Source of the DNA: Malacoraja senta
Taxonomy: Eukaryota
Assembly (NCBI GenBank): GCA_038087875.1
Contig: CM075987.1
Span: 17,486,001 to 17,550,000, forward strand
Direction: 5' to 3'
DNA length: 64,000 bases
Part shown: positions 2,346-62,710 of the stretch, piece by piece
Position numbering within the stretch: the stretch's first letter is position 1
Layout of the letters: every line of letters starts with the position of its first letter
Notes under the pieces: generated by a model
Database searches by the model: none
Told to the model about the DNA's origin: nothing
What the model saw: only the letters and a program-made list of their open reading frames with translations
Program-made: the position numbers and the translations under genes

Positions 2346-2914
2346 TACACAAAAATGCTGGAGAAACTCAGCGGGTGCAGCAGCATCTATGGAGCGAAGG
2401 AGATAGGCAACGTTTCGGGCCAAAACCCTTCTTCAGACTGATAGGGGGTGGGGGGAGGCGGGGAGAAGAACGGAAAAAGGAGGAAGAGGAGCCCGAGGGC
2501 TGAGGGAGAGCTAGGAAGGGGAGGAGACAGCAAGGGCTAACAGAATTGTGAGAATTCAATGTTCATGCCACCAGTATGCAGACTCCCCAAGCGGAATATG
2601 AGGTGCTGTTCCTCCAATTTCCGGTGTTGCTCACTCTGGCCGTGGAGGAGGCCCAGGACAGAGAGGTCGTATACGGAATGGGAGGGGGAGTTGAAGTGCT
2701 GAGCCATCGGGAGGTCAGGTTGGTTAATGCGGACCGAGCAGAGGTGTTCGGCGAAACGATCGCCAAGCCTCCGCTTGGTCTCACCGATGTAGATCAGCTG
2801 ACATCTAGAGCAGCGGATGCAATAGATGAGGTTGATGCAGGTGAACCTCTGTCGCACCTGGAACGACTGCTTGGGTCCTTGAATGGAGTTGAGGGGGGAG
2901 GTAAAGCGACAAGA
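2346..2914 (-). mobile_element. Penelope-like element 3' fragment with GIY-YIG endonuclease
   Basis: ORF 2537-2857: NLIYCIRCSRCQLIYIGETKRRLGDRFAEH...GMN; flanked by CAAGA repeats (2341-2345, 2910-2914). Confidence 0.9.
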
Positions 2915-3014
2915 GCTTTCCCGAGTAAAAAAAAAAAATCTAACTCGTGGTAAGCACGTAGAATGTACGTAGCGGGTACGACGGAGCTCGGGACGTCTCT
3001 TAGTGGCTTGTAAC

Positions 3015-43700: not shown

Positions 43701-46700
43701 GGCGAAACGCTGGCCCGCAACGGCAACGGGGGTCCCCCGCGTCAGGGGGTAGCAGCCCACAGCGGTGCCCCAACTGCAACTTTACCTCCCACCAGTCTAA
43801 TGTGTGCCCTGCACTGGGAAAAACGTGCAACGTTTGCGGGAAATTAAACCATTTCTCTGCAGCCTGTCGCTCCCGTGGGAAGCCAATTCCTGCTCCTCGC
43901 CGAATGTTAAACAACCTTGCTCGAGCTGATAGTGCGCTTGGTTCACAGTTCCAGCCTGATGAACTCCCTTTCTCTGATACAAGTTCCTCCCAGGGGGAGA
44001 CCAGCATATTTTCGGTGTTGGATGCACCTGCACTGATAACGGACCCTTCGGTTCGCGTTACTGTCAACGGCTCGACCTTCACCGCCAAACTCGACACGGG
44101 GGCCGCGACCAATGTTATGTCAATAGGCCTCTTCAAGAAGATAAGGTCTAGTGAGAAAGTCACTCCCGATCACTCCCTTTTGCATGCCTATGGGGGAGCC
44201 GAGCTCGTTCCAGTGGGGAGGGCTACCCTGCACTGCAAGGTACTGCATGCCGCTCAGCCCCTCACTTTTTATATACTGGATACTAACGACATCACCCTTT
44301 TGGGTGCCCAGGCGTGCCAGGACCTCGGCTTGGTCTCTTTCCACCGCGATATCCACCAGGTGCGGACCCTTATGGACCCCCTGCGCGAATACCCTGACCG
44401 TTTTGATGACAAGCTGGGCAAGCTGCCCTGCTGCTACAAGATCGTTGTCAACCTCGATGTTGAGCCTATGATCCGTCCACCACACCGCGTCTCCTTCGCC
44501 ATGAAGCACAAGGTGGAGTCAACGCTGCTCGACATGGTTACCATGGGCATCCTGAAGGAGGTGAGCGAACCCACCCGGTGGATCTCAACCATGGTTGTTG
44601 CGGCGAAAAAGGACAAGAGTGAAATTCGCATTTGCATCAACCCCAAAGACCTGAACCTTGCCATCAGACGCCCTCACTACCCCATGCGAACAGTGGAGGA
44701 CGTCGCTGCGCAGGTTGGCCCGGCCACTGTCTTCTCGGTTCTCGATGCCAAGAGCTCCTTCTGGCAGACACCGCTGGAAGAGCGGTCCTCCTACTTGACT
44801 ACTTTCGGCACACCTTTCGGCAGGTACCTATTCCTCCGCATGCCATTCGGGATCAACTCTGCCAGCGAGGTCTTCCAGCGGACGATGGAGCAGCTATTCA
44901 TCGGTCTGCCGTGTGCCATCATCGTTGACGACATCCTGGTCTACGGTAAAGACGTTGCTGAGCACAATCTCCACCTCCGTCGAGTCCTGGACCGGGCCCG
45001 TGAAATCAACCTCAAACTAAACCCAAAGAAGTGCCGGTTCTGCGTCCCGGAGGTCACCTATGTGGGCCACGTTTTTACCGCATCGGGGCTGAAGCCCGAC
45101 CCGCAGAAGACAGCTGCGGTCTCCGATATGTCTTCGCCCACCGACGTGCCCAGCCTGCAGCGTTTCCTGGGCATGGTTAATTACTTGGGGAAGTTTATCC
45201 CCGACCTCAGCGAGCTGAGCGCGCCCCTGAGGGAGTTGATCAAGAAGGACACTGCCTGGGCTTGGTTCCAGCATCACCAGACAACTTTTGACGTTCTGAA
45301 GTCCAGGCTGGCCAGTACCCCCACTCTCCAATTCTTCGATCTGCAGCGCCCCATTGTTTTTACATGCGACGCCTCCAAGTTCGGTCTGGGTGCTGCCTGT
45401 CTGCAGCTCCACGATGGCCTGCAGCTGCCTGTTTCCTACGCATCCCGCACCATGACCCCTGCCGAGCAGCGCTATGCTCAGACAGAGAAGGAGCTGCTTG
45501 CTGTGGTGTTTGCCTGCTCCAAGTTCAAGGACTATATCCTGGGCAACAGTTTCACGATCGAGACCGACCATCAGCCGCTGGTCTCTATCCTCAACAAGCC
45601 CATCCACGTTGCCGCGTCCCGGTTGCAGCGCATGATGCTACAGCTCCAGCGTTTTATGTTTAAAATTGTGTATCGCAAGGGCAAGGACATGTCCGTGGCC
45701 GACACGCTGTCCCGCGCACCTCTAACGTCCACTGATCGCCATCCATATGAATCGTCCGACCTGATGGTGCTTAACGTCAACATCGTGCCTTCCCAGCAAA
45801 TGCAGTCCCTGGTCAGCAACACTGCCAAGGACCCTTCCCTGCAGCAGCTTGCCGACGTCATCAGGCAGGGCTGGCCAGACCGTCGTTCATCCTTGCCGCC
45901 TGGAGTCGTGCCCTACTTCCTGGTCTGTGACGAGCTCGTGCTGCACGACGGCGTGGTCGTGAAGGGACACAAGGTCGTTGTGCCTGCTGCCCTGCGGGAC
46001 CTATACTTTCATACCACCCACCGCGGTCATCCTGGGGCCGAGGCCACCCTGTCTCGGGCCCAGAGTTTGTTCTACTGGCCCGGCATGGCCCAAGACATCC
46101 GGAAGAGGGTCTCCGCTTGCTCTGTCTGCAATAGCCTCGCTCCCCATCAGCAACGGCAGCCGCTTCTGCCACAGCCTGCCCCCGAGCTGCCCTGGATGAC
46201 TGTCGCCGCTGACATTTTTGAGTGGCGTGGAAAGCATTTCCTGGTTCTTGTGGACTCGTACTCCAGCTGGTTCGAGGTGGACCAGCTGCACTCCCTAACC
46301 TCTTCGTCCGTTATCGGCAAGCTGCGCCGCCACTTCGGAACCCATGGCACCCCGGCAAGTCTTCAATCGGACAACGGCGGCCAGTTCTTGAGCGCTGAAT
46401 TTCGGCGTTTCGCTGCCAGTTGGAACTTCCGACACTACACCAGCAGCCCAGAGTACCCACAAAGCAACGGGTTGGCAGAGCGCGCTGTCCGCAGTGCTAA
46501 GGACTTGCTGGGACATTGCAGACTGTCCCATTCTGATTTTTACTTGGCCCTCCTCAATCTTCGAAACATTTGCCGCGACACTGCCTTGGGCTCCCCAGCT
46601 CAACGGCTGATGTCTCGCACTACGAGACCTCCGATCCCGGTGACCCAGCGGTCCCTCGTTCCCTCTGTCCTCCGTCCCGCTGCCGTCCAGGAGCGCATTG

Positions 46701-49700
46701 CCCTCAAACAAGAAATCCAACGGCGCTCCCACGACAAGTCTTGTCGTCCTCTCCCGCCTCTGCTCTCAGGCCAAGTCGTCCGAATGCAATCCCCCTCCGG
46801 TCACCCCCGGTCACCTCATCGTCGGTACTGCTGGTTCGCCGCGGTCCTACCTTGTCGACCATGACGGTACCATTTACCGCCGGTCCCGGCAACATCTGCG
46901 GCTTGTTAACGAGCCACCACCGCCGCCTGCGGATCCCTTTTCCCCCCCACTGTCGACAACGCTGCCTGCCCCTCCGGCCAGTCCTCCCTCGCCTGCCCGT
47001 CTTCCTGCTACGGCTCCTGCTTCCCCTGCTCCTTCTCCGTTTTCTCGTTCTCCTCCCGGTTCCCCGGTTCTCTCCCCCGCGCCGGCTCCTGCTCATGCTC
47101 CGCCTGCAGAAGGGGGGGATGGCGAAATGCGTACCCAGTCCGGGCGGGTGGTCAGGCCGCCTATCCGTTATGGTGAATTTGTTTAACTGTTTGCTCACCT
47201 GCTCGTAGCGTATGAGACGTGGTCGCCCTGTCACTTCGGTATTGCTTATTATTTCCAAGGGGAAGGATGTAGATGATATGTGCATGTACCTTTAACATAG
47301 TGACCTCACCACTACTAACCACTCCCCACATCACTGGTATAAATACAACCTTCCCACCCAGTTCTCTCTCTCTGGCTCCAGTGACAGACCACGGACAGCT
47401 AGGGCAGAAAAGTATGTGTATAATGTATATTAAGAATAAACAGTAGTAAAGAAACAGTGCGTTATGACGCATCTTTACACCGACCACAACCAAAAACAAG
47501 GACGGGCCTCCTCTACACAGCTCATGACGGGCAGCTGCACATCAATCTGGACAAACAGCTGAAATTTCCACAGCAACATCACTCCGGCCAGACTTGATCA
47601 TCACCTCCGAAGTGACAAAACAGCTGATCATTCTGGAGCTGACAGTGCCCTGGGAAGAGCGTATTGAAGAGGCCAACGAGAGGAAACGAGCAAAGTACCA
47701 GGAACTGGTGGAGATGTGCCAGGACAGCGGCTGGAAGACACACTATGAGCCCATAGAGGTGGGCTGTAGAGGCTTTGCAGGACGCTCACTCTGCAAAGTC
47801 CTCAACCAGTTGGGCATTACGGGGCTGGCAAAGAAGAGGGCCATTCAATCCGCACGCAAACCGCAGAGGGCTGATCCGTGGGCGGTTGCTGCTGGGACGC
47901 AAGTCGGGGCCTGATCAACCCCGGCTGGGTCGCCTGGGCGAGGGTGTCTGATGTTGTGAGACCCGAAACACCCGATGACCCCAGATCACATCACTGAGGA
48001 TGCGTCCCAGCGCATCTAGAAGATGTATCTTTCACACTATAGTACTTGCCTCAACTACCTCCACTGACAGCTCGTTCCATATACCCACCACCCTTTGAGT
48101 AAACACCTTACCCCTCAGGTTCCTATTAAATCTCCCCCCCCCCCTTCACCTAAGACCTATGTCCTCTGCTTCTTGACTTCCCTACTCTGCCTCTATGCAT
48201 CTACCCAATCTATTCCTCTCATGATCTTGTACACTGCTATAAGATCACCCCTCATCCTCCTACGCTCCAAGGAATAGACTCCTAGCCTGCCCCAACCTCT
48301 CCCTATAGCTCAGGCCCTTGAGTCCTGGCAACATCCTCGTAAATCTTCTCTGCACCCTTTCAAGCTTGACAATAACATGGTGACCAAAACAGAACACAAT
48401 ACTCTTAATGTGACCTCATCAATGTCTTGTACAACTGTAACACAACCCCCCCAACATAGATACTCAACACCTTGACTGATGGAGGCCATTGTGCTGAAAG
48501 CAGCTTTGACCGCCCTATTCAGTGTAGGTCCTGTCCACGTTAGACATCACAAACTGCTCCACCTCTCATTTTACTGTATTAATTTCCATGTCTTGGTCAT
48601 TAGTCATTTGTCTTGGTTGGTTGAAGGAATGGCTGCCAACTGGATCCTAAAATTGGCTCAGTATTTGGAGGCAGAGATAGATGTATGAGATGTTTGGCCC
48701 ACCGTGTCCATGCCAATCATGTTGGCATTCTGGGCTGGAAGGCCCGCATCTGGCCCATATCCCTGTAAACTTCCTATCCATATATCTGTCCAAATGTCTT
48801 TTAATAAGATGATGCATTTTGGGAGGATTCAAAAATCGTGGGGGGAATAGATAATTTTTTTCCCAGAGAGAAGATAAAAACAGAGAACATGGGTTTAAGG
48901 TGAGAGAGGAAAGATTTTGTGAGAAACTGAGGGGCACATTATACACAGAGGGTGGGGGGTATATGGAATGAGCTGCCAGGGGAGGTAGTTGAGGCATTTA
49001 GAGGGATATGGACCAAATGTGGGGCTAACTTAGATGGGGTACCATTGTTGACATGGCCAAGTTGGGCTGAAGGGCCTGTTTTCGTGCTGTATGAGCCTAG
49101 GTCGAGTGATGATTGGGTAGACAGTAAACAGTAGGGCCCTCGGGATGCTGCTGGCTGCTGTTCAACTGCACCTGAGGCATGGAGGTTTAGTTTAGTTTAT
49201 TGTCACAGAGTCATAGTGATACAGTGTGGAAACAGGCCCTTCAGCCCAATTCGCCCACACCGGCCAACAATGTCCCAGCTACACTAGTCACAGAGTGATA
49301 CAGTGTGGAAACAGGCCCTTCAGCCCAACTCGCCCACACCGGCCAACAATGTCCCAGCTACACTAGTCATACAGTGTGGAAACAGGCCCTTCAGCCCAAC
49401 TCGCCCACACCGGCCAACAATGTCCCAGCTACACTAGTCACAGAGTGATACAGTGTGGAAACAGGCCCTTCAGCCCAACTCGCCCACACCGGCCAACATG
49501 TCCCATCTACACTAGTCCCACTTGCCTGCACTTGGTCCTTATCCCTCCAAACCTGTCCTATCCTGTCTAACTGTTTCTTAAACGATGGGATATTCCCAGC
49601 CTCAACTACCTCCTCTGGCAGCTTGTTCCATACACCAACCACCCTTGAAAAAGTCACCCCTTGGATTCCTATTAAATCTTTTCCCCTTCACCTTGAACCT

Positions 49701-52700
49701 GTCCTCTGGTCCTCGATTCCCCTACTCTGGGCAAAAGACTCTGTGCATCTACCCGATCTATTCCTCTCATGATTTTGTATACCTCTATAAGATCCCCCCT
49801 CATCCTTCTGCGCTCCATGGAATAGAGACCCAGCCTACTCAACCTTTTTTCAGATAGAAAATAAAGACCCAGCCTACTCAACCTCTTTAAATCTTTTCTG
49901 AACCCTTTCAAGCTTGACAATATCTTTCCTATAACATGGTGCCCAGAACTGAACACAATATTCTAAATGCGGTCTCACCAACGTCTGATACAACTGCAAC
50001 ATGACCTCCCAACTTCTATACTCAATACTCTGACTGATGAAGGGCAAAATGCCAAAAGCCTTTATGACCACCTTATCTACCTGTGACTCGACCTTCAAGG
50101 AACCATGCACCTGTACTCCTAGTTCCCTCTGCTCTACAACACTACCCAGAGGCCTACCATTCACTGTGTAGGTCCTGCCCTTGTTCGACATCCCAAAATG
50201 CAACACCTCACACTTCTCTGTATATTAAATTCTATCAACCATTCCTCCGCCCACCTGGCCAATCGATCCAGATCCTGCTGCAATCTTTCACAACCATCTT
50301 CACTATCTGCAAAACCACTCACTTTTGTATCATCAGCAAACTTGCTAATCTTGCCCTGTATGTTCTCATCCAAATCATTGATGTAGATGACAAACAGTAA
50401 CGGGCCCACTACCGAACCCTGAGACACACCACTAATCACAGGCCTCCAGTCCGAGAAGCAACCTTCCACCATCACCCTCTGCTTCCTTCCATGGAACCAA
50501 TTTGCTATCCATTCAGCTCTCTCTCCTTGGATCCCATGAGATCTAACCTTCCTGAACAATCAGCCTACCATGCGGAACCTTATTGAACGCCTTACTGAAG
50601 TCCATGTACACAACACCTACAGCTCTGCCCTCATCAACCTTCAAAAAACTCAATCAGATTTTGCATGTGCCAAATTATCGTGAAAAGCTTTTTTGTTGCA
50701 TGCTAACCAGTCAGCGGAAAGTGACATGATTACAATCAAGTCATCCAAGGTGTACAGGTACGTGATAAAGGGAATAACATTTAGTGAAAGATAAAGTCCA
50801 ATTTACAATAGTCCAAGGGTCTCCAACGAGGTAGTTGGTAGCACAGGACTGCTCTCTAGTTGGTGAGAGGACGGTTCAGTTGCCTGATAATAGTTGGAAA
50901 GAAGCTGTCCCTGAATCTGGAGGTGTGCGTTTTCACATTTCTGTACCATTTTCCTGATGGGAGAGAGGAAAAGTGGGCGTGACTAGGGTGAGACTGGTCC
51001 TTGATAATGTTACTGGCCTTACTGAGGCAGCGTGAAGTGTAGATGGAGTCAATGGAAGGGAGGTTGGTTTGTGCGATGGTCTGGGCTGCGTCCACAATTC
51101 TCTGCAGTTTCTTGCGGTCTTGGATGGAGCTGTTCCCAAACAACCTGTGATACATCCTGATAAAATGCCTTCTACAGCACGTTTGTAGAAGTTGGTGAGA
51201 ACTGTTGGGGACATGCCAAACCTCCGAAGCCTTCTAAGGAAGGAGAGGCATTGTGAGCTTTCTTGGCCATTGCTTTGATATGGCTGGTCCAGGACAAGTT
51301 GCTGGTGATATTTACTCTTAGGTACTTGAAGCTTTCAACTATCACTATTGTATACTGGGGTATGTGTACTGCTTCACTTCCTGAAGTCCATTACTAACAT
51401 AACAAGAGGAGTTGAGTATAGGAGCAAAGAGGTCCTTCTGCAGGTGTACAGGGTCCTAGTGAGACCACACCTGGAGTATTGTGTGCAGTTTTGGTCTCCA
51501 AATTTGAGGAAGCATATTCTTGCTATTGAGGGAGTGCAGCGTAGGTTCACAAGGTTAATTCCCAGGATGGCGGGACTGTCATATGCTGAGAGAATGGAGC
51601 GGCTGGGCTTGTATACTCTGGAATTTAGAAGGATGAGAGGATATCTTATTGAATCATATAAGATTATTAAGTGTTTGGACAGTCTAGAGGCAGGAAACAT
51701 GTTCCCGATGTTAGGGGAGTCCAGAACCAGTGGCCACAGTTTAAGAATAAGGGGTAAGCCATTTAGAACGGAGACGAGGAAACACTTTTCACACCGAGAG
51801 TTGTGAGTCTGTGGAATTCTCTGCCTCAGAGAGGGTGGAAGCCGGTTCTCTGGATACTTTCAAGAGAGAGCTAGATAGGGCTCTTAAAGATAGCGGAGTC
51901 AGTGATTATGGGGAGAAGGCAGGAACGGGATACTGATTGTGGATGATCAGCCATGATCACATCGAATTGCCGAATGGCCTCCTCCTGACGTTGAGAGAAA
52001 GGTTGTTGTCTCGACACCCGGACACGAGGTTCTCAATCTCCTTCCTGTACTCCTTCTCATCATTATTTGATACCCGGCCCACAATGGTGGTGTCGTCTGT
52101 GAATTTGTAAATTGAATTAGATGTGTACATGGCTACACAGTCGTAGGTGTACAAGGAGTAAAGAAGGGGGCTGAGAACCTAGCCTTGCGGAGCACCAGTG
52201 GTGAGGATTATCGTAGAGGATGATTTGTCCCCTATCCTCACTGACTGGGGTCTGTTGGTCAGGAAGTCGAGGATCCAGTTACAGAGATGAGTGCTGACTC
52301 CAAGTCCAGCTAGTTTGCTGATGAGCTTGGATGGTATAATGGTGTTAAAGGCAGAGCTGTCGTCTATGAATAGGAGTCTCTCTTATCCGGGTGTTCCAGG
52401 GATGAGTGCAGGGCCAGGGAGATGGCATCAGCCGTGGACCTGGTGTGGAGGTAGAACTACAGTGGGCCAAGGCCGCTGGAGAGAATGGATTTAATGTCTT
52501 CCATAACTAGCCCCTGGAAGCACTTCATGGTGGTGGATGTCAAGGCCACTGGACGGTAGTCATTCAGGCATGAGGTCTTGCTTTCTTTGGCACTGGGATG
52601 ATAGTGGTCTTCTTGAAGCAAATGGGCACCTCAAAGCAGAGTAGTCCGATAGAGATGTCCGTGAATACTGGTGCTAGCTGGTCCGCGCAGTTTCTGATGA

Positions 52701-55700
52701 CGTAGCAAGGGACCCTGTCCAGCCAGTTTGTTTCCATGGGTTTACCGTCAGGAAGGCCCAACTAACTTCTACAACTGTGACCCTGGGAAGTGGCAGACAA
52801 GTCTGATGGGACGGATGTCATCTCCCTATTGGCCTTCTGCTCAAAGTGACCACAGAAAGGAGGTGGAACGGTAGCTGCAGTGGGCCGCTGGATGGCGTGA
52901 TGTGTTGGTGGAGTGGGTCCTCTGCATACCGTGCAGGAGCCAGGGGACTGCCTGGATCAGACACCACTAGAGGCCCCTCAGGCAAACACATGCATCGGAC
53001 ATGGCCTACAGCAGCAAGGAGTGGGGGCGGAGAATATCGGCAACATCTCCAGCCAAGGCCGCCCCCTGCAACACCGACGCATCCAGAGCCACCGCCAGAA
53101 CAACAGGCCTTTGATAAGGCAATATATTTAAGAACTATGAAACTTGAAAGGTACAAGATTGTGCTGGGAACATGGCGACTCCTTGTGAACTGCCTGAGGG
53201 AATCTGTGTGTGCACTAGAATCGTTGCACTCTTGTACTTATGTGTAGTTGTTTCTGGTGGTAATGTGGAGCATGGCTGAGGTGGAGCAGGAGGGAGGCTC
53301 AATGTCTGGGATCAACTGGGCAACAATGTCTGGGACATTCACAATATGAACAAAAACGTACAGAAGGCTCAGGACCTAATGAGATGATGAGGACGTGGGT
53401 ATAGTGGATGAATTTAGAGCCAGGATCAGTGCCTGGAACTATGATATTGTGGCCATTATATAGATAAGAGGCAATAGTGTTTTATTGTCATATGTCCCAG
53501 ACAGAACAATGCAATCCCTACAGCACAGCAGAGCAGAATATGTAAACACAGTACTCTTTAACCAATATAATAAACCAGAAAAAAAAGTTCAGTGTATATA
53601 TATATATATATATATATATCAGGGCTCTCGCTTAACTTTTTTTCCCTGTTGCCAGCCGGGCAACCTTGGCAGCTTTTTAGGTTGCCAAATGTCAGCTTAG
53701 GTGGTCATTTAAGACGGTTTGCATGACGCGTGCAATGTGCTCGGACGAAGTGCGTAGTTACCAGTCGGAATTATACTCAATGAAGCATTCACATATTATT
53801 TCTGCTTCAAATAAAGTCACAAACTAAACATATTCACCAATCAAGACATGATATATCCCACAATGACATGCAGCAAAATTATAATACAGTATCTCAACTC
53901 TTTGTACACATTGCAATTAATGCAATTTCTATTAGTTCTTTCCACTTCCAAACTAAAATGTGGTTGGATTATTCAGCATATGATCAACCTGTGTCAATAA
54001 ATCCTGGACCATGGTAACATATATGCCTAACCATGCACACTACAGATTGATGCAAGAATGTTTTCTGTGAAGGACCGAAAATTACCATAACATGGCCATA
54101 GCATGGGTCGTTATTGCTATTGGTACAGAAACACTCTCGCTTCCCACATAATTTATCCACAACAAAATATACAGGTTGCAAGGAAATTTCTATAGGCATT
54201 TTATGATAATAGGTGTTAAAACCGACTATACCCATCTGACAGGTTAAACATTACACTAACTGACAAGAGCTGGCCAAAGGACATAACTGCAGCAAATGTT
54301 CTTTTGGTAATATATTTAAAGGTGTCAAGACGCCACATTACCAGACATTCAGATTAGATGTACGTGTTGTGAACAGCAATGAAGATACCCAGTTTGTAAG
54401 CACCAGATTTAAATAAAATTATTGATAAACGCTGTTTCCATCATTCCCACTTCAGAATTAACGTTAAAATTTCAACTAAAATATCTCCTGAACAAATTTG
54501 TGATGTAGATGATCGACTGTAGAAGTAAAACCTGGATAAATCCAACGTATAGTTGTGAATGTTGCTCATTAAATAACTACAGTACTGATACTGTAGTTAT
54601 TTAATGTGGTTGGATTATTCAGCATATGATCAACCTGTGTCAATAAATCCTGGACCATGGTAACATATATGCCTTTGTCCTTTGGCCAGCTCTTGTCAGT
54701 TAGTGTAATGTTTAACCTGTCAGATGGGTATAGTCGGTTTTAACACCTATTATACTCGCTAGAATTTAGGAGATTGAGAGGGGATCTTATAGAAACGTAC
54801 AAAATTCGTATGGGGTTGGACAGGCTAGATGCAGGAAGATTGTTCCCGATGTTGGGGAAGTCCAGGACAAGGGGTCACAGCTTAAGGATAAGGGGGAAAT
54901 CCTTTAAGACCGAGATGAGGAAAGACTTTTTCACACAGAGAGTGGTGAATCTCTGGAACTCTCTGCCACAGAGAGTAGTTGAGGCCAGTTCATTGGCTAT
55001 ATTTAAGAGGGAGTTAGATGTGGCCCTTGTGGCTAAGGGGATCAGGGGATATGGAGCGAAAGCAGGTACGGGATACTGAGTTGGATGATCAGCCATGATC
55101 ATATTGAATGGCGGTGCAGGCTCGAAGGGCCGAATGGCCTACTCCTGCACCTATTTTCTATGTATCTATATATCTATGATACTCCATATTAAGAGCATTG
55201 ATTTGAAGTTTAAATGAATTCTGTAATAATGTGTCAACGGCAGCAGTGACAATCGAACACTGCGGTTTTAATGTTTCACGTGTTCACAATTTAATTAATC
55301 CATCTTTATGGACTAAAACAAACATTTCCAGCACAATAGGGTCAGGGAGGGGTGTGTGTGAATCAGTGCGGGGTGGATAGATGGCGGGGGTGGGGGTGGT
55401 GGGGGGTTAGAAGGTAGTCGGTGCAGAATGGATGGATTGAGGCAGGTGAATTAGTACGTGTTGGTTGGAGTAGGTATAATTGTGAGGGGAGAGCACGGGG
55501 GATGTCAGTGGTGTTGAATGGGGGGGTTCACTACGGGATGGATGGGGGTAGACAAAAGTGCTGGAGAAACTTAGCGGGTGAGGCAGCATCTATGGAGTGA
55601 AGGAAATAGGCAATGTTTCGGGTCGAGACCCTTCTTCAGACTGTCCCCCCCATTCTTCTTGAATGGGAGGATCAGTACAGGATGGATGGGGGGGGGGATC

Positions 55701-58700
55701 AGCACAGGATGAATGGGGGGAGGTGGGTCAGTACAGTGTGGATCGGAGGGTCTGTGCAGGATGAATGGCGAATCACTACAGGATGAATGAGGGGAAGGTG
55801 CAGGGTAAATGGAGGGTGGGTCAGTATGGGATGCATGCGTGGATTAGTACAGGATGGATGGGGGATCAGTACAGGATGGATGGAGGAGAAGTGCAGGATG
55901 GATGGGAAGGGGGTTAAGTACAGGATGAATTGGGGGACCAGTGTAGGATGGATGGGGGGGGGGGGGTGGCAGGAGAATCAATGCGAGGTGGATAGGGTGA
56001 TCAGCGCAGGATGAATAGATGGGGGGGGTAGATGGGGAGGGGAGCACAGGGGATGTCAATGAGGACTGAATAGAGGCGGGAATGGGGATCAGTGCAGGAT
56101 GGAGAGGACGGGTCCCAGGATAAGGGGGGGGTGGTGGAGGGGGCATACAAGAGAGGAAGAGAGGGGGCGAGGTGGGGAGGAAGGAAGGTCAGCGCTCCTC
56201 AGACAACATCGCCCCGCTGCCTTGGCCGTTGGGATTTCCTCGCCACCGCCCCCCTCCTCCGCCAGCCAACAGCAAGATGCGGGGCTGAGCGGTGCAGCTC
56301 AAAGATCCTATAGCTATAGGATCTTTCGTGCAGCTGCTTCTGAACGGTCGGAGCGAATGACGGGTCCCGCACAGCGGCAGCAGCGGCCGCGATAGCGGCT
56401 CCATCTCCTCTTCCTCCCTGATAGCGGCCGCTTCTTGCAAATCCGCTAATGGCGCTTTCAAAACAAACCCTCCTGCACGCCCAGGCAGGGAGGAGGGAGG
56501 GAGGGGGAGGCCTCGGCGTGCGGGAGGATTTGTTTTGAAAGCGCCGTTAGCGGGTTTGCAAGCAGCAGCCCTTATCAGGGCGGGCGGGGTGCGGGAGGAG
56601 GAGGAGATGGAGCCGCTGACGCGGCCGCTGCTGCCGTTGTTCAGCGCCCGTCATTCGCTCCGACCCTTCGTCACCACGCACCTAGTATCTTTGCCCCGCA
56701 CGACAGCCGTCGCCGACACGCAAAGTCGCGTTCCTTTTCTCCAGAGATGCCGCCTGACCCGCGGAGTTACTCCAGTTTTTTGTGTCTATCTTCGGTATAA
56801 ACTAAGTTGCCAAGCCGGGCAAAATGACTCGCCGTTTAGGTTGCCCGGCGGCACTTTGGGTGGTCAGTGGCACCCGGGCAACCGCTAATTTCGAGCTCTG
56901 CATATATATATATATATATATACTCACGGCTGGTGGGCTGGCAGTTGACTCACGCCTATTCCTTGAAATTCCATTTTTAGAGAAATTAGAGATTCCTTTA
57001 TTTGTCATTCAGACCTTTCGGTCTGAACGAAATTTTGTTGCCTGCAGTCATACATATAATAATAAATAACAAAACACACAATAAACACAAATTAACATCC
57101 ACCACAGTGAGTTCACCAGGCACCTCCTCACTGTGATGGAGGCAAAAATCTTAAAGTCTCTGTCTCTTCCCTCTTTGTTCTTCCTCTGCGCTGAGGCGAT
57201 CCAGGCTTCTGATGTTGTGAACCCGCCAGGTGATGGTAAGTCAGTCCCGCGGCTGAATCCGTGCTCCGCGACGGGCCGGATCAAACTCCGCGGCCAGGGG
57301 TGATCGAAGCTGCCGCCCTCCAGTCCAGCGGACGCAGCTGTAGTTGCGGGAGCTCCAGAAAAATAGGTCACCCACCTGTGCCCGCGGCCGAGCCTCGGGA
57401 TTCAGGTCACCACCAGTGTCCTCGGTCGCCACCGCCGGAACGCCGGAATGCCACCGCAGCCCCGAAGTTGGCCAGCCTCGCGTTGGTAAGTCCTGGCTCT
57501 GCCTCCGGAGCCTCGAGGTCGGTCGGTCGTAGTTGGAGGCTGTCAGCTCCGCGATTAGGCCTCAGCGCAGACGGAGGCAGAGAAGGGGGATACGAGAAGA
57601 AAAAGTCGCATTCCCCCGAAGGAAGAGACAAAAATCATGTTTCATCCCCCCACCCCCACACATACACAACCCAATAAACTAAAATTCATTTCAAGCAGAG
57701 TGCAAGGCCACCAAATTGAAATCCATTTTCCTACCATTTCAAGCAGGGTGCAAGGCCATCAAATTCAAGTGCAGTTTCTTACCTCTTCGAGCAGGGTGCA
57801 AGGCCACAAAATTCAAGTGCAGTTTCATACCACATCAAGCAGGGTGCAAGGCCACCAAATTCATGTGCAGTTTCATACCAATTGAAGGAGGGTGCAAGGC
57901 CACCAAATTCAAATGCAGTTTCATACCATTACATGCAGGGTGCAAGGCCACCACATTCAAATGCAGTTTCATACTATTTCAAGCAGGGTGAAACCACCAT
58001 AAAAACCACCATAAAACCACACAAAACACCACACTCACAGTTCAGTAGACATTCAGTGTGTTCAGTTGATTCACAGCTCAGACAGAGTCGTGACCTCTCC
58101 CTCCCCCATCATGCAGAGACTGAGCCACACCCACACTTCTGGGTTTTATAATCCCTCCCCCTCCCACCGGAAAAGGTGTGGCCTTCATGGCGTCATTGAC
58201 AGGAGAGAGATTCTCAACATTTTTTAAACACTAATAACACTTTTGTTTATCATTGATGGGAAGAATCCTCTGCACCTGATGAGCGGAGGGGAACTGAGTA
58301 AGATGGCTAAAAATCACAGCCGTAAGTGGTAGCCTTTTATCTAAAATCAATATAGTGCAAACAGGAAGTTGTCAAGTTTAGACAAACAACCATTTGCAGG
58401 CAGTGCCTTTTCAGTTCAACCCAAACCCCCCAACAACCATTTGCAGGCAAGTGCCTTTTCACTTCATCCCAACCCCCCCAAACAACCATTTGCAGGCAGT
58501 GCCTTTTCACTTCAACCCAACCCCCCCAAACAACCATTTGCAGGCAGTGCCTTTTCACTTAATCCCAACACCCCCAAACAACCATTTGCAGGCAGTGCCT
58601 TTTCACTTCATCCCAACCCCCCCAAACAACCATTTGCAGGCAGTGCCTTTTCACTTCAACCCAACCCCCCAAACAACCATTTGCAGGCAGTGCCTTTTCA

Positions 58701-61700
58701 CTTCAACCCAAACCCCCCAAACAACCATTTGCAGGCAGTGCCTTTTCACTTCAACCCAAACCCCCCAAACAATCATTTGCAGGCAGTGCCTTTTCACTTC
58801 AACCCAAACCCCCCAAACAACCATTTGCAGGCAGTGCCTTTTCACTTCAACCCAAACCCCCCAAACAACCATTTGCAGGCAGTGCCTTTTCATTTCAACC
58901 CAAACCCCCCAAACAACCATTTGCAGGCAGTGCCTTTTCATTTCAACCCAAACCCCCCAAACAACCATTTGCAGGCAGTGCCTTTTCACTTCAACCCAAA
59001 CCCCCCAAACAACCATTTGCAGGCAGTGCCTTTTCACTTCAACCCAAACCCCCCAAACAACCGTTTGCAGGCAGTGCCTTTTTACTTCAAACCAACCATA
59101 TTTTCATTTTCAAACCACATTAAGGGCACTCACAGTTGAGTAGACATGTGTTCAGTGTTATTCAGAGCTCAGAGAGACGTGACCCTCTGGCTTCCTCCAT
59201 CTTGCAGAGACTGAGTGAGGCACACCACTTCCTGGTTTTATAGTCCCTCCCCATCCCTCCAGCAGGGGCAGCAGAGAGAATGGCAATTAAAAAAAAAACA
59301 TTAATATTTCTCATATCTTTCATCGATGGGAAAAATCCTCTGGTCCAGGAAGGCGGAGGGGGGGCTCTGAGCGATGTGGCCAAAAATGACGGCCGTAGGT
59401 AGCGGCGTTCTGTCGGAAATCACAGCACAGTGAGCCAAAAGCGGTCAAGATCAGACTTTTAGTAATATAGATAGATATAGAGAGAGAGACACATACATCC
59501 ACGTGTAGACATAAAAACAAACAATAATAGTGCTAAAAGACACAAACAAGGCCACCAGTTTATGTAGTTTGGAGCTTATTTGAGGTTGTCGTGTTTACTA
59601 GCCTGATGGCTGTAGGGAAGCAGCTGTTCCTGAGCCTGGATGTTACAGTTCTCAAACTCCTGTACCTTCTTCCTCAAGGCAGGAGTGAAATGAGTGTGTG
59701 GCCAGGGTGCTGTGGGTCTCTAATGATGCTGGCTGCCTTTTTGAGGCAGTGACTCCTATAAACATCCCTTCAATGGTGGGAAGGTCAGTGCCCGTGATGA
59801 ACTGGGCAGTGTTATAAGGTCACAAGTGATAGGAGCAGAATTAGGCCATTTAGCCCATCAAGTCTACTCTGCTGTTCAATCATGTCTGATCTCTATGTTC
59901 GAACCTCATTCTCCTGTCCGAACAGTATCTCTCTGTCCGAACCTCATTCTCCTGCCTTCTCCGCATAACCCCAGACACCCGCTTTGATCAAGAATCTATC
60001 TATCTCTGCCGTAAAAATATCCATTGATGGCCTCCACAACCTTCTGTGGCAAAGAATTCCACAAATTCACCACCCTCTGAGTAAAGAAATTCCTCCTCAT
60101 CTCCTTCCTAAAGGAACATCCTTTAATTCTGAGGCTGTGACCTCTAGTCCTAGACTCTCCCACTAGTGGAAACATCCTCTCCACATCTACTCTATCCAAG
60201 CCTTTCATTATTCTGTATGTTTCAATGAGGTCCCCCCTCATTCTTCTAAACTCCAGCGAGTACAGGCCCAGTGCTGTCAGACGCTTATCATATGTTAACC
60301 CACTCATTCCTGGGATCATTCTTGTAAACCTCCCCTGGACCCTCTCCAGAGCCAGCACATCCTTCCTCAGATATGGTGCCCAAAATTGCTCACAATACTT
60401 CAAATGCTGCCTGTCCAGCGCCTTATAGAGCCTCAGCATTACATCCTTGTTTTTGTATACAAGCCCTCTCGAAATAAATGCAAGGATTGAGTTTGCTTTC
60501 TTTACTACCGATTTGACTCGCAGATTAACTTTTTAGGAATCCTGCACCAGCATTCCCAAGTCCCTTTGTACCTCCAATTTCTGGATTCTCTCCCCATTTA
60601 GAAAATAGTCTATGCCTTTATTCCAACTACCAAAATGCATGACTCCACACTTTGCTACACTATATTGCATCTGCCACTTCTCTGCTCACTCTCCGAACCT
60701 GTCCAAGTCCTTCTGCAGAGTCCCTGCTTTCTCTACACTACCTGTCCTTCCACCTATTTTCGTATCATCAGCAAACTCTGCCAAAAAGCCTTCAATCCCC
60801 TCGTCCAAATCATTAATATACAACGTGAAGAGTAGCGGCCCCAGCATCGACCCCTGTGGAACTCCACTAGTCACTGGCAGCCAACCAGAAAAATCCCCCT
60901 TTATTGCCACTCTTTGCCTTCTGCCATCCAGCCAACCTGCTATCCATGCTAGTATCTGCCCTTTGATACCGTGGGCTCTCATCTTCCTTAGCAGCCTCAC
61001 ACATGGTACCTTATGAAGGTTTTTTGAAAATCTAAGTAAATAACATCTACTGACTCTCCTTTGTCTGTCCTGCTATTTAGTTTTTTAAAGAATTCCAGCA
61101 AATTTGTCAGGCAAGACGTCCCCTTCACAAAGCCATGCTGACTTTGGGTGACTATCACTTTTTGCTGTCTTCTTCACTCAGGAGGCGGCGAGTTGCCCAA
61201 CCAGTGTGCAACCAATCAATATGCTCGTTACTGTACATCTGTAGAAGTTATGAGAGGGACACGACTAACAGCTCAACTTTCCAAGGTTTCTGTGTTTCAG
61301 ATGGGAAAGAGGTGGAGGAATCGCGCAACTAATCAGGACGATTAGTAGCCAGCCACAGGAGGGGGCTTGGAGGGCTAGGCTGTAGCCAATGTTGTCCCTT
61401 TGTTTAAGAAGACAAGGAGAGATAATTCAAGCATTGATGAGCTGGTGAGCCTCACGTCAGTGGCAGGGCAGCTATTGGAGAGGATACTTTGAGATAGCAT
61501 TTGGAAGAGTATGGGTTAAATAAGGACAATCAGCGTGGCTTTGTACACGGCAGCTCGTGTCTTATTGAGGTTTTTTGATGAGGTGACGAAGGTGATCGAT
61601 GAGGATGGGTGGTGGATGTTGTCTACATGGTGGCATGGATGTTTGCATTCTGACCTAGCGTTGTAGACCTGTAAAGCTGCAAGAAGCAAGAATTAATTGT

Positions 61701-62710
61701 TCTCTTTCATGTCTGGTGCACGGGACAAATGAACACTTGACCATGTTTGGCCGTCACTTCTTGCGTCATATCAGCACCTTGATGTTGCTTTAATATTGAC
61801 ACACGTACTGAAATACTATGTAAAACTTTGTGTGCTGTCCAGTCACATTGTGTACCCGACAATAGAACGATACCGTACAGGAACAATGCCGAGAATATCA
61901 AGTCCATCACATAATCCATGTCCCTTCACACCCTGCATATCCATGTGCCTATGCAAAAGACTTTTAAAAGCCACTAACATATCCACTTCAGCATGTTCCA
62001 GGCACTCACTAACCTCTGTGTAGAGACAACTTGCCCCGCACATCTCCTTTCACATTGCCCCTCACGTATTTGATTTCTCTATCGTAGGAAAGAGGTTCTG
62101 ACTGTCAATCCTCTCATAGTTTTATATACTATCGGAGCTCCCTGCAGCCTCTGGCGTTCCAGAGAAAATAATCTAACTCTATCCAAACTCTCCAATGCAG
62201 GCTTCATTCAGGCAAACCTCCTGTGCACCCTCTCCAAAGCCTCTGCCCCCCTTTGTGAATGCCCACCCAAGGCTTGGTGAAGGGGTCCACTCACCCGGTG
62301 CAGTTGCTGCAGTTGCTTGGCCAGGTTGGGTGCAGGGGATGTGTTTCTCATTCCACACTGAGCCGGCACCCTCTTCACATCTTCAGGCCTGTACATCAAA
62401 TGTTGCCCGCTCACAGATCCCCTCAGATGCTCGATGACGTAGGTCCGGTTACTGAGGACAATCAGGGCGCTGGGAGAGGGAGAGAAGATGCTCACTGTTG
62501 ACCCAAACTCTGATCAATGTTACGCCCAGCAGTTGCACAGTGAGCATCCCTGGCCCCGCGCTCACAGCCCAGTACGTTACCCAGCGAGCCACCCCCTCTC
62601 CGCACCCCCGCACCGCCGACCGGCCACGTGTACCTGAGTCCTGAGCAGGTGCTGGCAGACACGGCAGAGCCTCGCAGGCTTCTGATAAACCCCTCGTAGT
62701 AACACAAACC
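3821..62710 (-). CDS. ADAM metalloprotease-disintegrin gene (ADAM8/12/15/19/33 group, best guess ADAM15-like), partial; nine exons, 1059 nt / 353 aa in window
   Basis: Nine GT-AG-bounded exons splice with compatible phases into one ORF: GLCYYEG...STCSGLS ALIV...PAQCGM (Cys switch)...HRVKR DVF (furin site)...YIEMVLVAD...[12 protein letters not shown] (HExxHxxGxxH)...CVM (Met-turn)...[15 protein letters not shown]...[12 protein letters not shown]. The extra residue in CSSLGPCC and LLPRL resemble ADAM15 as I recall it; orthology not tested. Confidence 0.95.
4115..4640 (-). mobile_element. Rex/Babar-type LINE 3' fragment with nested Penelope-derived piece (about 4245-4392)
   Basis: Peptide [16 protein letters not shown]...TSRFRD; same 3' UTR near 35000 and 50700. 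Confidence 0.7.
6046..6535 (+). mobile_element. CR1 LINE APE endonuclease fragment
   Basis: MGDFN...[12 protein letters not shown]...LGGSDHN motifs. Confidence 0.85.
6685..6862 (-). CDS. ADAM exon (end of metalloprotease, start of disintegrin) [11 protein letters not shown]...[18 protein letters not shown], 178 nt
   Basis: Acceptor ctttattttcAG, donor GCG|GTGGGT; phase 2 to 0. Confidence 0.94.
9135..10263. repeat. About 90-bp degenerate tandem repeats within outer DIRS, interrupted by a CR1
   Basis: GCAGCTCCT(G/C)GTT...TTTTCCTCCCACTC...GGAGATGG units at 9135, 9227, 9317, with more diverged copies after 10100. Confidence 0.8.
9429..10093 (+). mobile_element. Young 5'-truncated CR1 LINE
   Basis: Uninterrupted ORF2 C-terminus to 10001, 3' UTR ending (TTTCTATG)n; 30-bp tandem duplication at 5' junction. 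Confidence 0.92.
11475..12550 (+). pseudogene. DIRS gag-like ORF1, frameshifted
   Basis: Fragments [46 protein letters not shown]. Confidence 0.65.
12713..14620 (+). pseudogene. DIRS RT / RNase H / adenine methyltransferase-like ORF, multiple frameshifts and stops
   Basis: [34 protein letters not shown] (YxDD mutated), [38 protein letters not shown]. Confidence 0.88.
14624..15590 (+). pseudogene. DIRS tyrosine recombinase, disrupted
   Basis: [51 protein letters not shown]; stop at 15188 and apparent deletion of the GW motif. Confidence 0.9.
18148..19140 (-). mobile_element. Rex/Babar-type LINE 3' part with (TTAC)n tail
   Basis: [46 protein letters not shown]. Confidence 0.88.
19150..19452 (+). 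mobile_element. CR1 3' end
   Basis: Matches other CR1 3' ends, (CTATTGT)n tail. Confidence 0.85.
19762..20138 (-). mobile_element. Second, shorter copy of the 18148 Rex/Babar 3' end, inserted in a minus-strand CR1
   Basis: Near-identical to 18148-18522 including (TTAC)n tail. Confidence 0.85.
20720..21580 (-). mobile_element. Degenerate CR1 RT fragments
   Basis: [24 protein letters not shown] motifs. Confidence 0.75.
21585..22075 (-). mobile_element. L2 LINE 3' fragment
   Basis: [24 protein letters not shown]...[14 protein letters not shown]...FKSRLKTYL; (GACTT)n tail; sister fragments 27697-27966 and 40380-40480/41630-41725. Confidence 0.88.
22473..24222 (-). mobile_element. Rex/Babar-type LINE, RT region to 3' end
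   Basis: [47 protein letters not shown]; ORFs 23407-24105 and 22731-23381. Confidence 0.9.
24379..25991 (-). mobile_element. Tc1 transposon, IR/DR type, full length, defective
   Basis: About 215-bp TIRs starting CAGTGGCTTGCAA, TA TSD, internal direct repeat TGCAAAAGT.TTCA. Confidence 0.97.
24597..25612 (-). pseudogene. Tc1 transposase with one frameshift (about 25410) and one in-frame codon loss
   Basis: [31 protein letters not shown]. Confidence 0.93.
26172..26447 (+). mobile_element. tRNA-derived V-SINE (HE1-like)
   Basis: A box GGTGGAGCAGCGGT, B-box-like GGTTTGATCCC, V-domain-like GTTTCCTCCCACATTCCAAAGACGTGC, tail GCTGTATCTCTAAACTAAA; 3' fragments also near 39730-39815 (+) and 63801-63888 (-). 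Confidence 0.82.
26694..26836 (-). CDS. ADAM catalytic exon with [12 protein letters not shown] zinc-binding motif and CVM Met-turn, 143 nt
   Basis: Acceptor ctcttcccAG, donor AG|GTAAG; phase 0 to 2. Confidence 0.96.
27040..27478 (+). mobile_element. CR1 3' end, same young subfamily as 9429-10093
   Basis: Near-identical to 9650-10093; nested in an older CR1. Confidence 0.9.
28114..28886. mobile_element. PIF/Harbinger-type MITE
   Basis: TIR TGGGCCTGTCCCACTTAGG.GA.TTTT / AAAATCGCCTAAGTGGGACAGGCCCA; flanks TAA / TTA. Confidence 0.82.
29627..29711 (-). CDS. ADAM exon [28 protein letters not shown], 85 nt
   Basis: Acceptor ctcttattacAG, donor CTG|GTGAGC; phase 2 to 0; GLA..SMC...SGGVN motif. 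Confidence 0.94.
30027..31667 (-). mobile_element. CR1 (minus) interrupted by a plus-strand CR1 3' end (about 30941-31308)
   Basis: ORFs 30114-30449, 30625-30981, 31298-31813 (-) and 30956-31219 (+); TCATC on both sides of the insert. Confidence 0.88.
32305..32670. repeat. GT-rich minisatellite, about 36-40-bp unit
   Basis: GCTGGGTGTGACTATGATGAGAGCAGGGTGGGTGTG.. repeated about 9 times, abutting an exon donor. Confidence 0.9.
32681..32850 (-). CDS. ADAM exon [19 protein letters not shown]...HNDNAHLI, 170 nt
   Basis: Acceptor gctcccacAG, donor TT|GTGAGT; phase 0 to 2. Confidence 0.94.
33020..34910. repeat. CA-rich and CCCA-rich low-complexity tracts flanking the 72-nt exon
   Basis: (CACACT/CACACC)n 33020-34430 and (CCCCA)n 34565-34910. 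Confidence 0.95.
34433..34504 (-). CDS. ADAM exon [24 protein letters not shown], 72 nt (not in ORF track)
   Basis: Acceptor cttcctttgtAG, donor CTG|GTGAGT; phase 0-0; RLLxIAN..D helix motif; lies between two simple-repeat tracts. Confidence 0.9.
35215..36410 (-). mobile_element. Two Rex/Babar-type LINE fragments, one nested in the other, with a 70-bp tandem triplication (about 36130-36355)
   Basis: [37 protein letters not shown] repeated. Confidence 0.78.
36725..37725 (+). mobile_element. CR1 RT to 3' end
   Basis: [22 protein letters not shown]; ORFs 36727-37206 and 37182-37580. Confidence 0.9.
39910..39975 (-). CDS. ADAM exon [22 protein letters not shown] (furin site, start of catalytic domain), 66 nt
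   Basis: Acceptor cttcctttcAG, donor [18 protein letters not shown] motif. Confidence 0.93.
40482..41622 (-). mobile_element. L2 LINE RT C-terminal part with (ATT)n tail, nested in another L2 3' end
   Basis: [43 protein letters not shown]. Confidence 0.9.
41726..42350 (+). mobile_element. CR1 3' part (continuation of 40225-40366)
   Basis: ORF 41861-42265 CR1 C-terminus and 3' UTR. Confidence 0.88.
42824..43035 (+). repeat. 5' LTR
   Basis: TATAAAT at 42894, AATAAA at 42991; 5 mismatches to 3' LTR by manual comparison. Confidence 0.97.
43127..47186 (+). CDS. Gag-Pol polyprotein (1245-aa ORF to 46864; probable true C-terminus in the frame ending 47186 after a frameshift near 46800-46815)
   Basis: Two CCHC knuckles, protease [17 protein letters not shown], RNase H TCDAS..YAQTEKE, integrase H..H..CSVC, SDNG, SNGLAER, then [17 protein letters not shown]. 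Confidence 0.95.
47268..47479 (+). repeat. 3' LTR
   Basis: Direct repeat of 42824-43035. Confidence 0.97.
49204..50660 (-). mobile_element. CR1 RT to 3' end with four tandem copies of the 3' terminal segment
   Basis: ORFs 50161-50559, 49874-50206; 72-79-bp units at 49204-49520. Confidence 0.88.
50690..52800 (-). mobile_element. Rex/Babar-type LINE interrupted by a plus-strand CR1 (about 51398-51990)
   Basis: [36 protein letters not shown]1 ORF 51348-51806. Confidence 0.82.
53620..56900. mobile_element. Non-autonomous TIR DNA transposon (hAT-like termini) inserted in (TA)n
   Basis: Imperfect TIRs CAGGGCTCTCGCTTAAC / GCTAATTTCGAGCTCTG, subterminal GTTGCC/CCGGGCAAC repeats at both ends, no transposase; TSD unresolvable in microsatellite. 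Confidence 0.65.
54754..55176 (+). mobile_element. 5'-truncated CR1
   Basis: ORF 54774-55079; TGATACT at 54586-54592 and 55177-55183. Confidence 0.9.
56977..57687 (-). mobile_element. Retroposon-like insertion within Helitron copy 2
   Basis: Absent from copy 1 at the homologous position; minus-strand AATAAA plus short TCTCTAA-type tail; CATTT on both sides. Confidence 0.6.
57688..57990. repeat. 48-bp tandem array A (inverted), about 6 copies
   Basis: Reverse complement of the unit at 22-895. Confidence 0.95.
58119..58170 (-). promoter_or_regulatory. Candidate Pol II core promoter (G-rich box, TATAAAA, Inr TCAGT) facing array A
   Basis: TATAAAA 58150-58144, Inr A at 58121 (29 nt downstream). 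Confidence 0.45.
58383..59095. repeat. 48-bp tandem array B, about 15 copies
   Basis: Unit TTCAACCCAAACCCCCCAAACAACCATTTGCAGGCAGTGCCTTTTCAC (58681 to 58729). Confidence 0.97.
59210..59260 (-). promoter_or_regulatory. Candidate Pol II core promoter (TATAAAA, CAGGAAGT, Inr TCAGT) facing array B
   Basis: TATAAAA 59242-59236, Inr A at 59212 (30 nt downstream). Confidence 0.45.
59815..61150 (-). mobile_element. CR1 RT to 3' end
   Basis: ORFs 60686-61000 and 59996-60439. Confidence 0.88.
62295..62469 (-). CDS. ADAM exon (prodomain, cysteine switch PAQCG), 175 nt
   Basis: Acceptor ccctctcccAG, donor CGG|GTGAGT; phase 2 to 0; [14 protein letters not shown]...LQQLHR. Confidence 0.92.
62634..62710 (-). 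CDS. ADAM exon (prodomain) [25 protein letters not shown], 77 nt
   Basis: Acceptor ctctcctcacAG, donor AG|GTAC; phase 0 to 2; CYYxG...STCSGL prodomain motif. Confidence 0.93.

Follow-up and report, generated by a model that had tools for sequence, protein, structure and literature searches.

The window analysed here is a stretch of 64,000 nucleotides of Malacoraja senta DNA (contig CM075987.1, positions 17,486,001 to 17,550,000 of the forward strand), and all coordinates below are those of the window. It contains an ADAM-type gene on the minus strand whose reprolysin exons (32680-33030 and 26695-26869) have Pfam matches. A repeat lies in a 22.3-kb intron of this gene, between two predicted exons (62469-62295 and 39975-39910) that were assigned by inspection alone and for which neither Pfam nor PDB gave an ADAM match; PDB searches with three predicted ADAM exons also gave no ADAM match. 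The features of the locus are as follows.

39976..62294, minus strand: host intron of the ADAM-type gene
59472..59813, minus strand: upstream half of the LINE-like 3′ end that received the element (both flanks compared with 22907-22490)
59452..59471, minus strand: Helitron-type 5′ terminus, where TC (59471) follows A (59472) and precedes an AT-rich stretch
59096..59471, minus strand: leader 1, which spans the 5′ terminal region and contains a G-rich box, TATA, Inr, a short predicted exon and the donor (leader alignment and block identities)
59210..59259, minus strand: core-promoter-like block 1, with G-rich box 59259-59243, TATAAAA 59242-59236 and TCAGT 59214-59210
59128..59212, minus strand: predicted first exon of 79 nt (59212-59134) and GTGAGT donor (59133-59128), with predicted splicing
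58383..59095, minus strand: array B, 14.9 x 48 bp
57991..58383, minus strand: leader 2, a paralogue of leader 1 (leader alignment)
58033..58167, minus strand: core-promoter-like block 2, with TATAAAA at 58150 and TCAGT at 58123
57687..57990, minus strand: array A, 6.3 x 48 bp
56977..57681, minus strand: later 705-bp insertion, retroelement-like and foreign to the Helitron (junctions against the uninterrupted copy at 875-915)
56922..56976, minus strand: last 55 bp of the element's tail (87% identical to 891-945)
53620..56900, no strand assigned: adjacent 3.3-kb element, its short terminal inverted repeats agreeing at 7/8 bases, within TA repeats
1..1183, plus strand: second family copy, with the end of leader 2, array A, tail, hairpin and CTAG

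Read on the minus strand from the 5′ end at 59471, the element consists of leader 1, array B, leader 2 and array A. A preliminary description of this DNA had given the same order, with coordinates for the TC terminus and the leaders and with about 15, 6 and (at the window start) 18 copies of 48 bp, and re-measurement upheld them, the arrays having 14.9, 6.3 and 18.4 copies. The span that it proposed, 57688..59471, is right at its 5′ limit but not at its 3′ limit, because the element continues through the 705-bp insertion to 56922. Its reading of a Helitron-type 5′ end, a multi-copy family and internal minisatellites agrees with the A|TC start, the terminus shared with an independent copy (P0003) and the 48-bp arrays. 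P0003 has a different flank and becomes similar precisely from the codon that starts at 59472, so that the canonical TC after A is found at the same start in both copies. The depth of a DNA run falls at this boundary from 735,000 (59440-59459) to between 7,500 and 31,000 (59500-59559), in a profile that leaves out 59463-59503. Leader 1 is present as a repeat in DNA runs of several organisms, with no RNA run listed among those that contain it; in one DNA run, 20,103 contigs align to 581 bases, with unbroken depth from leader 1 into array B. The LINE flanks of the element (the other half of the interrupted 3′ end is 53620-53480) match consecutive parts of an uninterrupted LINE copy at 22907-22490, which resembles an empty site. 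Many dispersed copies with a common terminus, and an empty-site-like sequence, are seen in the reads, P0003 and the LINE paralogue. As for a target-site duplication, the insertion site is a TA microsatellite (the TA-rich LINE tail) and the 3′ end of the element has been lost.

The 705-bp insertion has a 10-11 bp target-site duplication and is single-copy in the window. The copy ends at 56922 with no hairpin or CTAG, and it has no match to 946-1260 beyond short repeats. The window-start copy has an 18.4-unit array A (22-896), an imperfect hairpin (1155-1173) and CTAG (1180-1183) followed by T (1184), with 946-1183 putatively belonging to the same family; the hairpin (-3.8 to -4.4 kcal/mol) does not stand out from shuffles of 1140-1190 (z 0.19). 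The 705-bp interruption, the missing hairpin/CTAG end and the opposite orientation of the window-start copy were all absent from the preliminary description. This copy does point in the same direction as the ADAM gene, as claimed there, but the window-start copy faces the opposite way, so orientation relative to the gene carries no signal. By its TC and CTAG ends the element would be placed with the canonical Helitrons. HINE/DINE-1-type Helentrons (oyster Cg_HINE, PMC7492417; Xenopus Heli2Xen, PMC12001565), as the available text of these sources describes them, likewise have short internal arrays that differ in related elements, but they have subterminal inverted repeats, while the ends here are of the TC/CTAG type. 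Of 40 inverted-repeat pairs, the 25 listed include none that joins the 5′ end with the tail, in a copy whose 3′ end is missing.

No RepHel domain was found in the 73 of 163 long frames of the window that were scanned, and no autonomous element tying the leader or either array to RepHel was found in two protein searches with array frames; these returned one repeat-derived ORF and one unrelated match, which is weak evidence on a RepHel partner. Rfam had no match within the element, and collections of viral, metagenome and prokaryote sequence gave 0 matches in pattern scans. Three hits (L001, L002 and L003) are attributed to chance and lack BLAST similarity to the window; P0002 was discarded as an unrelated repeat-like ORF. 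Judged from its sequence, the copy at 56922..59471 is a damaged member of a common mobile family, and its activity is only putative.

The units of array B have a mean pairwise identity of 0.93 (13 full units), and those of array A of 0.86 among 6 units and 0.87 to the window-start units. A coding role for the arrays was rejected: their sole open 16-codon frame shifts with indels, and their sole protein relative is itself repeat read-through. The two leaders are diverged paralogues, as previously described, with 228 of 329 positions identical (69%). Both contain TATAAAA and TCAGT facing the adjacent array at the 29-30 nt spacing reported before (TATA to Inr-A, 30 nt in leader 1 and 29 nt in leader 2). 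The arrangement TATAAAA-N20-24-TCAGT occurs twice in the window, both times in the leaders (shuffle mean 0.03; at least 2 in 0/100 shuffles), and since the two occurrences are homologous they are not independent events. The predicted exon of leader 1 carries an upstream ORF of 12 codons at 59200, then a second ATG at 59147; that of leader 2 has 83 nt (58121-58039) and a GTGAGT donor at 58038-58033 (minus strand). In both leaders an ATG lies 14 nt upstream of the donor. The GTGAGT between Inr and array in each leader (59133 and 58038) had not been noted in the preliminary description.

The identity between the leaders is unevenly distributed: TATA is kept at 7/7, Inr to ATG at 17/18, the 41 nt before the donor at 36/41 and the donor at 6/6, while the body of the upstream ORF is kept at only 10/23. 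In this comparison of the two leaders of one copy, the TATA and Inr blocks are better kept than the 69% of the whole, as the preliminary description had expected; the block probabilities of 0.001-0.005 are optimistic because the motifs were picked after the alignment was seen. Family variants fall in columns common to both leaders at 13 of 32 positions versus 71% expected (p 0.0004); the 32 positions were taken from 40 of the 144 rows and include 8 changes private to this copy. None of the 32 lies within the 18 TATA/Inr/donor bases, which alone gives p 0.16. Identical TATA, Inr and donor motifs in leaders that are otherwise 69% alike suggest past selection, probably as a transposase promoter.

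The preliminary description had suggested that the element may be a mobile cassette selected for transcribing repeat RNAs from the 48-bp arrays, in which case the donor would be unused or used occasionally. The promoter geometry is indeed kept twice, facing arrays of equal period. However, a donor upstream of each array gives the anatomy of promoter, first exon and donor, in which the array would be intronic, and this speaks against a purpose-built cassette. The donor and the preceding 41 bases are kept as well as the promoter, neither the element's own sequence nor the window-start copy contains AATAAA or ATTAAA, other sequence follows the same leader in family copies, and minisatellites are common in non-autonomous rolling-circle elements in the parts of PMC7492417 and PMC12001565 available. 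Three runs guessed to be RNA were compared as contigs, which give no starts, strand or level. They cover leader 1, including the part upstream of the TATA box, with exon/upstream depth ratios of 1.51, 2.17 and 2.22 versus 1.44 in the DNA run. No loose end (24 of 495 listed) or joint (15 of 20 listed) lies at the donor; 1 of the 24 contig pieces listed crosses it unspliced (59237-59080), as the cassette would predict but as intronic RNA or DNA would equally explain. We consider selection for repeat RNA very unlikely. The element also differs from the Caenorhabditis heat-shock-element Helitrons (PMC6927752, from the text available), which it resembles in that a Helitron spreads repeated DNA with regulatory potential: with up to 1 mismatch allowed, 57680-59471 contains 0 heat-shock consensus sequences and the window-start copy 1, and heat-shock arrays were rejected.

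The homology of leader 2 to the element's own 5′ end begins at about base 16, and leader 2 has no TC of its own here. This fits known composites with multiple 5′ ends: in maize, 17.6% of helA elements have more than one 5′ terminus (PMC3288121, text available in part), and silkworm Helitron families formed from two Helitrons (PMC3789558, likewise in part). An independent copy, P0001 (residues 3-72), matches leader 2 in translation at 68 of 70 residues and then continues into array A. It ends in IYITK, which in the window occurs only at the 59472 terminus and suggests, from protein letters only, another family 5′ end directly behind the P0001 copy. In addition, loose contig ends at 59121, 59116 and 59105 show that leader 1 is followed by other sequence in some copies. 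The same leader with different sequence behind it indicates a leader common to several subfamilies.

An older internal tandem duplication of leader and array within one element, whose halves then diverged with concerted evolution of the arrays, would also account for both arrays having a 48-bp period right after the donor region and for the lack of the terminal ~15 bases in leader 2. The weak alignment of the A and B units (21/48 ungapped) is consistent with it by the weaker single-base shuffle (5/1000) but is not significant when dinucleotides are shuffled, as 209 of 2000 such shuffles equalled the score. Kinship of the A and B units is therefore not shown, and of the two duplicated leader-plus-array modules described previously, duplication is shown for the leaders only. 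The further kinds of sequence behind the leader in other copies fit a set of subfamilies, and we regard a tandem duplication as quite unlikely. It would be compatible with either origin of the promoter, from a transposase gene or by host capture.

Taken together, we propose that the element is probably a defective, non-autonomous Helitron that acquired two 5′ ends from nested or adjacent related elements. The first ~350 bases of the element recur internally, diverged and lacking the first ~15, and each version is followed by a different 48-bp minisatellite. The leader would be the 5′ terminal region common to a group of related Helitron subfamilies. An element with leader 1 and array B may have come to sit directly upstream of one with leader 2 and array A by nested or adjacent insertion, so that the outer TC could start both. 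This copy was broken by a later insertion and because its 3′ end was lost. Like maize helA and silkworm BmHel-6/-9/-10 (PMC3288121, PMC3789558), as far as the available text goes, it has TC after A, an internal second 5′ end and a composite of related elements, with the CTAG end present in the sibling copy only. Unlike those composites as described there, this one couples every 5′ end to a promoter-exon-donor block and a separate 48-bp array; its inner end shares 69% identity and is missing ~15 bases at the start, and its 3′ end is absent.

The TATA box, Inr, exon of ~80 nt and GTGAGT donor may be the promoter and non-coding first exon of an ancestral transposase gene, with the minisatellite within its intron 1. 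The block would have been kept while lineages needed RepHel expression and would now be a passive passenger. Alternatively, an early member may have captured a host TATA promoter, first exon and donor and amplified, with doubling later. The anatomy is that of HelibatN3 (promoter, few codons, splice donor and exon trap; PMC4778049), in which capture of the NUBPL promoter has a known source gene and demonstrated activity (PMC4778049, PMC4224331), and in bats the capture of 5′ gene ends goes with higher Helitron copy numbers (PMC4224331), according to the portions available of both sources. As in HelibatN3 of vesper bats, a putative promoter, a short predicted exon with ATG and a donor lie close to the 5′ end of a non-autonomous Helitron with many copies, of which this copy lies sense-wise in a host intron; the donor-proximal ATG retained in both leaders is in keeping with capture. 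However, the leaders can be aligned without a break from close to the terminus as far as the donor, at 58-70% identity outside the motifs, and a passive passenger would not be expected to hold its motifs while neighbouring blocks drop to 43-60%. Compared with HelibatN3 in the text available, the predicted block here is doubled, and splicing to the next predicted ADAM exon would meet a stop after 5 codons, counted from the donor-proximal ATG. In-frame trapping of that exon was rejected for this reason for both leaders. A captured host promoter appears rather unlikely, and we retain an ancestral transposase promoter as the probable origin.

Literature searches, covering result listings and not Repbase or Dfam, found no published description of this Helitron family. 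There is precedent for every feature of its architecture, and the element is a decayed repeat inside an intron; any present-day effect would be that of a stray promoter or exon trap, not of a repeat-RNA gene. The copy is useful for repeat annotation, and the conserved promoter-exon-donor block may reveal how vertebrate Helitron transposases are transcribed. A bolder possibility, which we judge unlikely, is that a very abundant vertebrate Helitron group in several related species spreads a still working Pol II TATA/Inr promoter with first exon and donor, sometimes paired, whose copies start transcripts or trap host exons genome-wide and for which the 48-bp period, common to arrays that otherwise differ, is a selected trait. 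Should copies remain active, the family would supply many alternative promoters outside bats.

The preliminary description gave the order of the defective element, read on the minus strand from its TC terminus, as leader 1, array B, leader 2 and array A, and this order was correct.

Element and related window-start array
TC at 59471, minus strand: element 5' terminus, preceded by A, seen in the sequence
58383-59095, minus strand: array B, 14.9 x 48 bp
57687-57990, minus strand: array A, 6.3 x 48 bp
22-896, plus strand: related array A of the window-start copy, 18.4 units

The TATAAAA-TCAGT spacing described earlier was confirmed in the two leaders (30 and 29 nt), and nowhere else in the window do the two motifs stand in this combination, against a mean of 0.03 over 100 shuffles; since the sites are homologous, they count as one origin. 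The alignment of leader 2 with leader 1 starts at approximately base 16 of the terminus; leader 2 is therefore a second 5' end and not merely a promoter. Overall identity is 228/329, distributed unevenly.

Identity of leader 1 and leader 2 by block
G-rich box: 14/17
TATA: 7/7
Spacer: 12/20
Inr to ATG: 17/18
Upstream-ORF body: 10/23
41 bases before the donor: 36/41
GTGAGT: 6/6
After the donor: 16/32

The GTGAGT donor, absent from the preliminary description, is found in both leaders, where it bounds predicted exons 79 and 83 nt long, so that each array would lie in an intron. The probability that three blocks of this kind stay intact by chance in the leader alignment was about 0.001-0.005, an optimistic figure given that the motifs were chosen once the alignment had been inspected. 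Both leaders also contain a weak stem-loop some 110-140 bases in from the 5' end (59325-59365 and 58250-58292, minus strand; -1.7 and -2.9 kcal/mol), and a variant in contig loose ends at 59359 has, by inspection, a more perfect stem. As for the arrays, 209 of 2000 dinucleotide shuffles and 5 of 1000 single-base shuffles scored as well as the similarity between the A and B units, which have a common 48-bp period and at most a putative homology; internal minisatellites are described as common in rolling-circle elements (PMC7492417, PMC12001565).

Among the 40 of 144 rows listed from the family variant table built from reads, which give 32 variant positions in the leader, none fell in the 18 TATA, Inr and donor bases (p 0.16), 6 fell in 59128-59250 vs. 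11.5 expected (p 0.03), and 13 fell in columns common to both leaders vs. 71% expected (p 0.0004). Because this copy alone accounts for 8 of the 32 positions (at six of these the change is back to the leader-2 base) and the contigs compared with leader 1 may include leader-2-like ones, constraint on the leader is suggested, not proven.

The minus strand of the window carries reprolysin exons, and by inspection the element is in the intron between predicted exons 62469-62295 and 39975-39910, for which database searches gave no support. If either leader exon were spliced to the predicted exon that follows, a stop would come after 5 codons, which makes a productive fusion with the host gene unlikely. 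The window-start copy is antisense.

Part of leader 1 is present in 20 of the 22 sequencing runs listed, and 14 have at least half of its 46 words; these runs represent 12 studies and seven coded organisms. No RNA run is listed among those with leader 1, and three further runs presumed to be RNA are represented by contigs. In the DNA run X1, 20,103 contigs aligned to 59040-59620, including 60 bases of LINE; the summed depth, which is not copy number, was 0.4-4.5 million over leader 1 together with the first array-B unit, compared with 7,500-31,000 at 59500-59559, with 59463-59503 left out of the profile. Two database ORFs were compared with TGA read as Trp, as they seem to have been called. 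P0003 has an unrelated start, and its similarity (35/38 residues) sets in exactly at codon 59472-59470, which gives the element's 5' boundary. P0001 is an independent copy of leader 2 and array A (68/70 residues alike), and its last five residues occur within the window only at the element's 5' terminus, a sign that a further family start may directly follow that copy. Among 24 of 495 loose ends listed, those at 59121, 59116 and 59105 show the leader followed by other sequence in some copies. Loose ends at 59142, in X1 and a second run, X15, show some copies with a second copy of the donor-bearing motif just upstream; some subfamilies thus seem to have a tandem repeat of the exon end.

An element end at 57688, as first proposed, was not borne out: a 705-bp insertion (56977-57681; target duplication 10-11 bp; single copy within the window) interrupts the element, and 55 bp more of family tail follow, with an 87% match to the tail of the window-start copy. 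The insertion is CpG-rich (observed/expected 0.87 vs. 0.46 for the window), with AATAAA near its end. TA repeats lie downstream of 56922, as does a 3.3-kb element set in such repeats (53620-56900). This neighbouring element has short, imperfect terminal inverted repeats of 8 bp, contains an inverted repeat of 330 bp in its interior (56342-56669, 74%), and shows duplicated stretches, inverted or direct, at 53957-54753. The flanking sequences on the outside, 59472-59813 and 53620-53480, match consecutive parts of one LINE-like 3' end, which is uninterrupted at 22907-22490, the empty-site equivalent. The LINE and SINE types would fit a cartilaginous fish as host. Canonical Helitron features are found at the 5' end; no hairpin or CTAG end is left in the minus-strand element, which stops at 56922, and the plus-strand window-start copy is followed by CTAG/T (1180-1184) and an imperfect hairpin (1155-1173) no better than shuffles, with family membership of 946-1183 putative.

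Other features of the window
43091-46864, plus strand: LTR-retrotransposon pol, 1257 codons in one unbroken frame, with domains for RT, RNase H and integrase
8287-8413, plus strand: U8 snoRNA match (64 bits vs. cut-off 41), probably a dispersed copy
24597-25427, minus strand: Tc1-type transposase frame, HTH and DDE
14670-15188, plus strand: weak integrase N-terminal SAM-like match, below cut-off, presumably DIRS-like
2537-3013, minus strand: GIY-YIG match, which we take to be Penelope-like

The termini, copy structure, block conservation and decay of the element are direct observations, and two insertions of later date suggest that this copy is old and passive. Transposition of Helraiser is reported to require the left end but not the right (PMC4778049), so loss of the 3' end is no strict proof of immobility. 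In its mode of operation the element is like a non-autonomous Helitron that has several 5' ends, and its anatomy resembles that of HelibatN3 (PMC4778049, PMC4224331). We found no description of this family in the literature on cartilaginous-fish Helitrons or Helitron TATA promoters, a search outside which lay repeat databases and most subscription journals, and the accessible part of bioRxiv 10.1101/2025.06.08.657570 makes no mention of it. The composite probably arose through an element of one subfamily becoming placed upstream of another subfamily's 5' end. In maize, multiple 5' termini occur in 17.6% of helA elements and are attributed to nesting (PMC3288121), and silkworm families formed by two Helitrons joining (PMC3789558). 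A captured host promoter is a less likely source of the promoter-exon-donor unit. Protein searches with both array frames, a weak test, gave no RepHel fusion, and no autonomous partner was found; an autonomous Xenopus copy, Heli1Xen1, is reported to have a 5' end with a presumed promoter as well as an annotated 5' UTR (PMC12001565). The promoter-exon-donor unit is probably the ancestral transposase promoter, because selection on an autonomous lineage would explain its retention in two diverged subfamilies.
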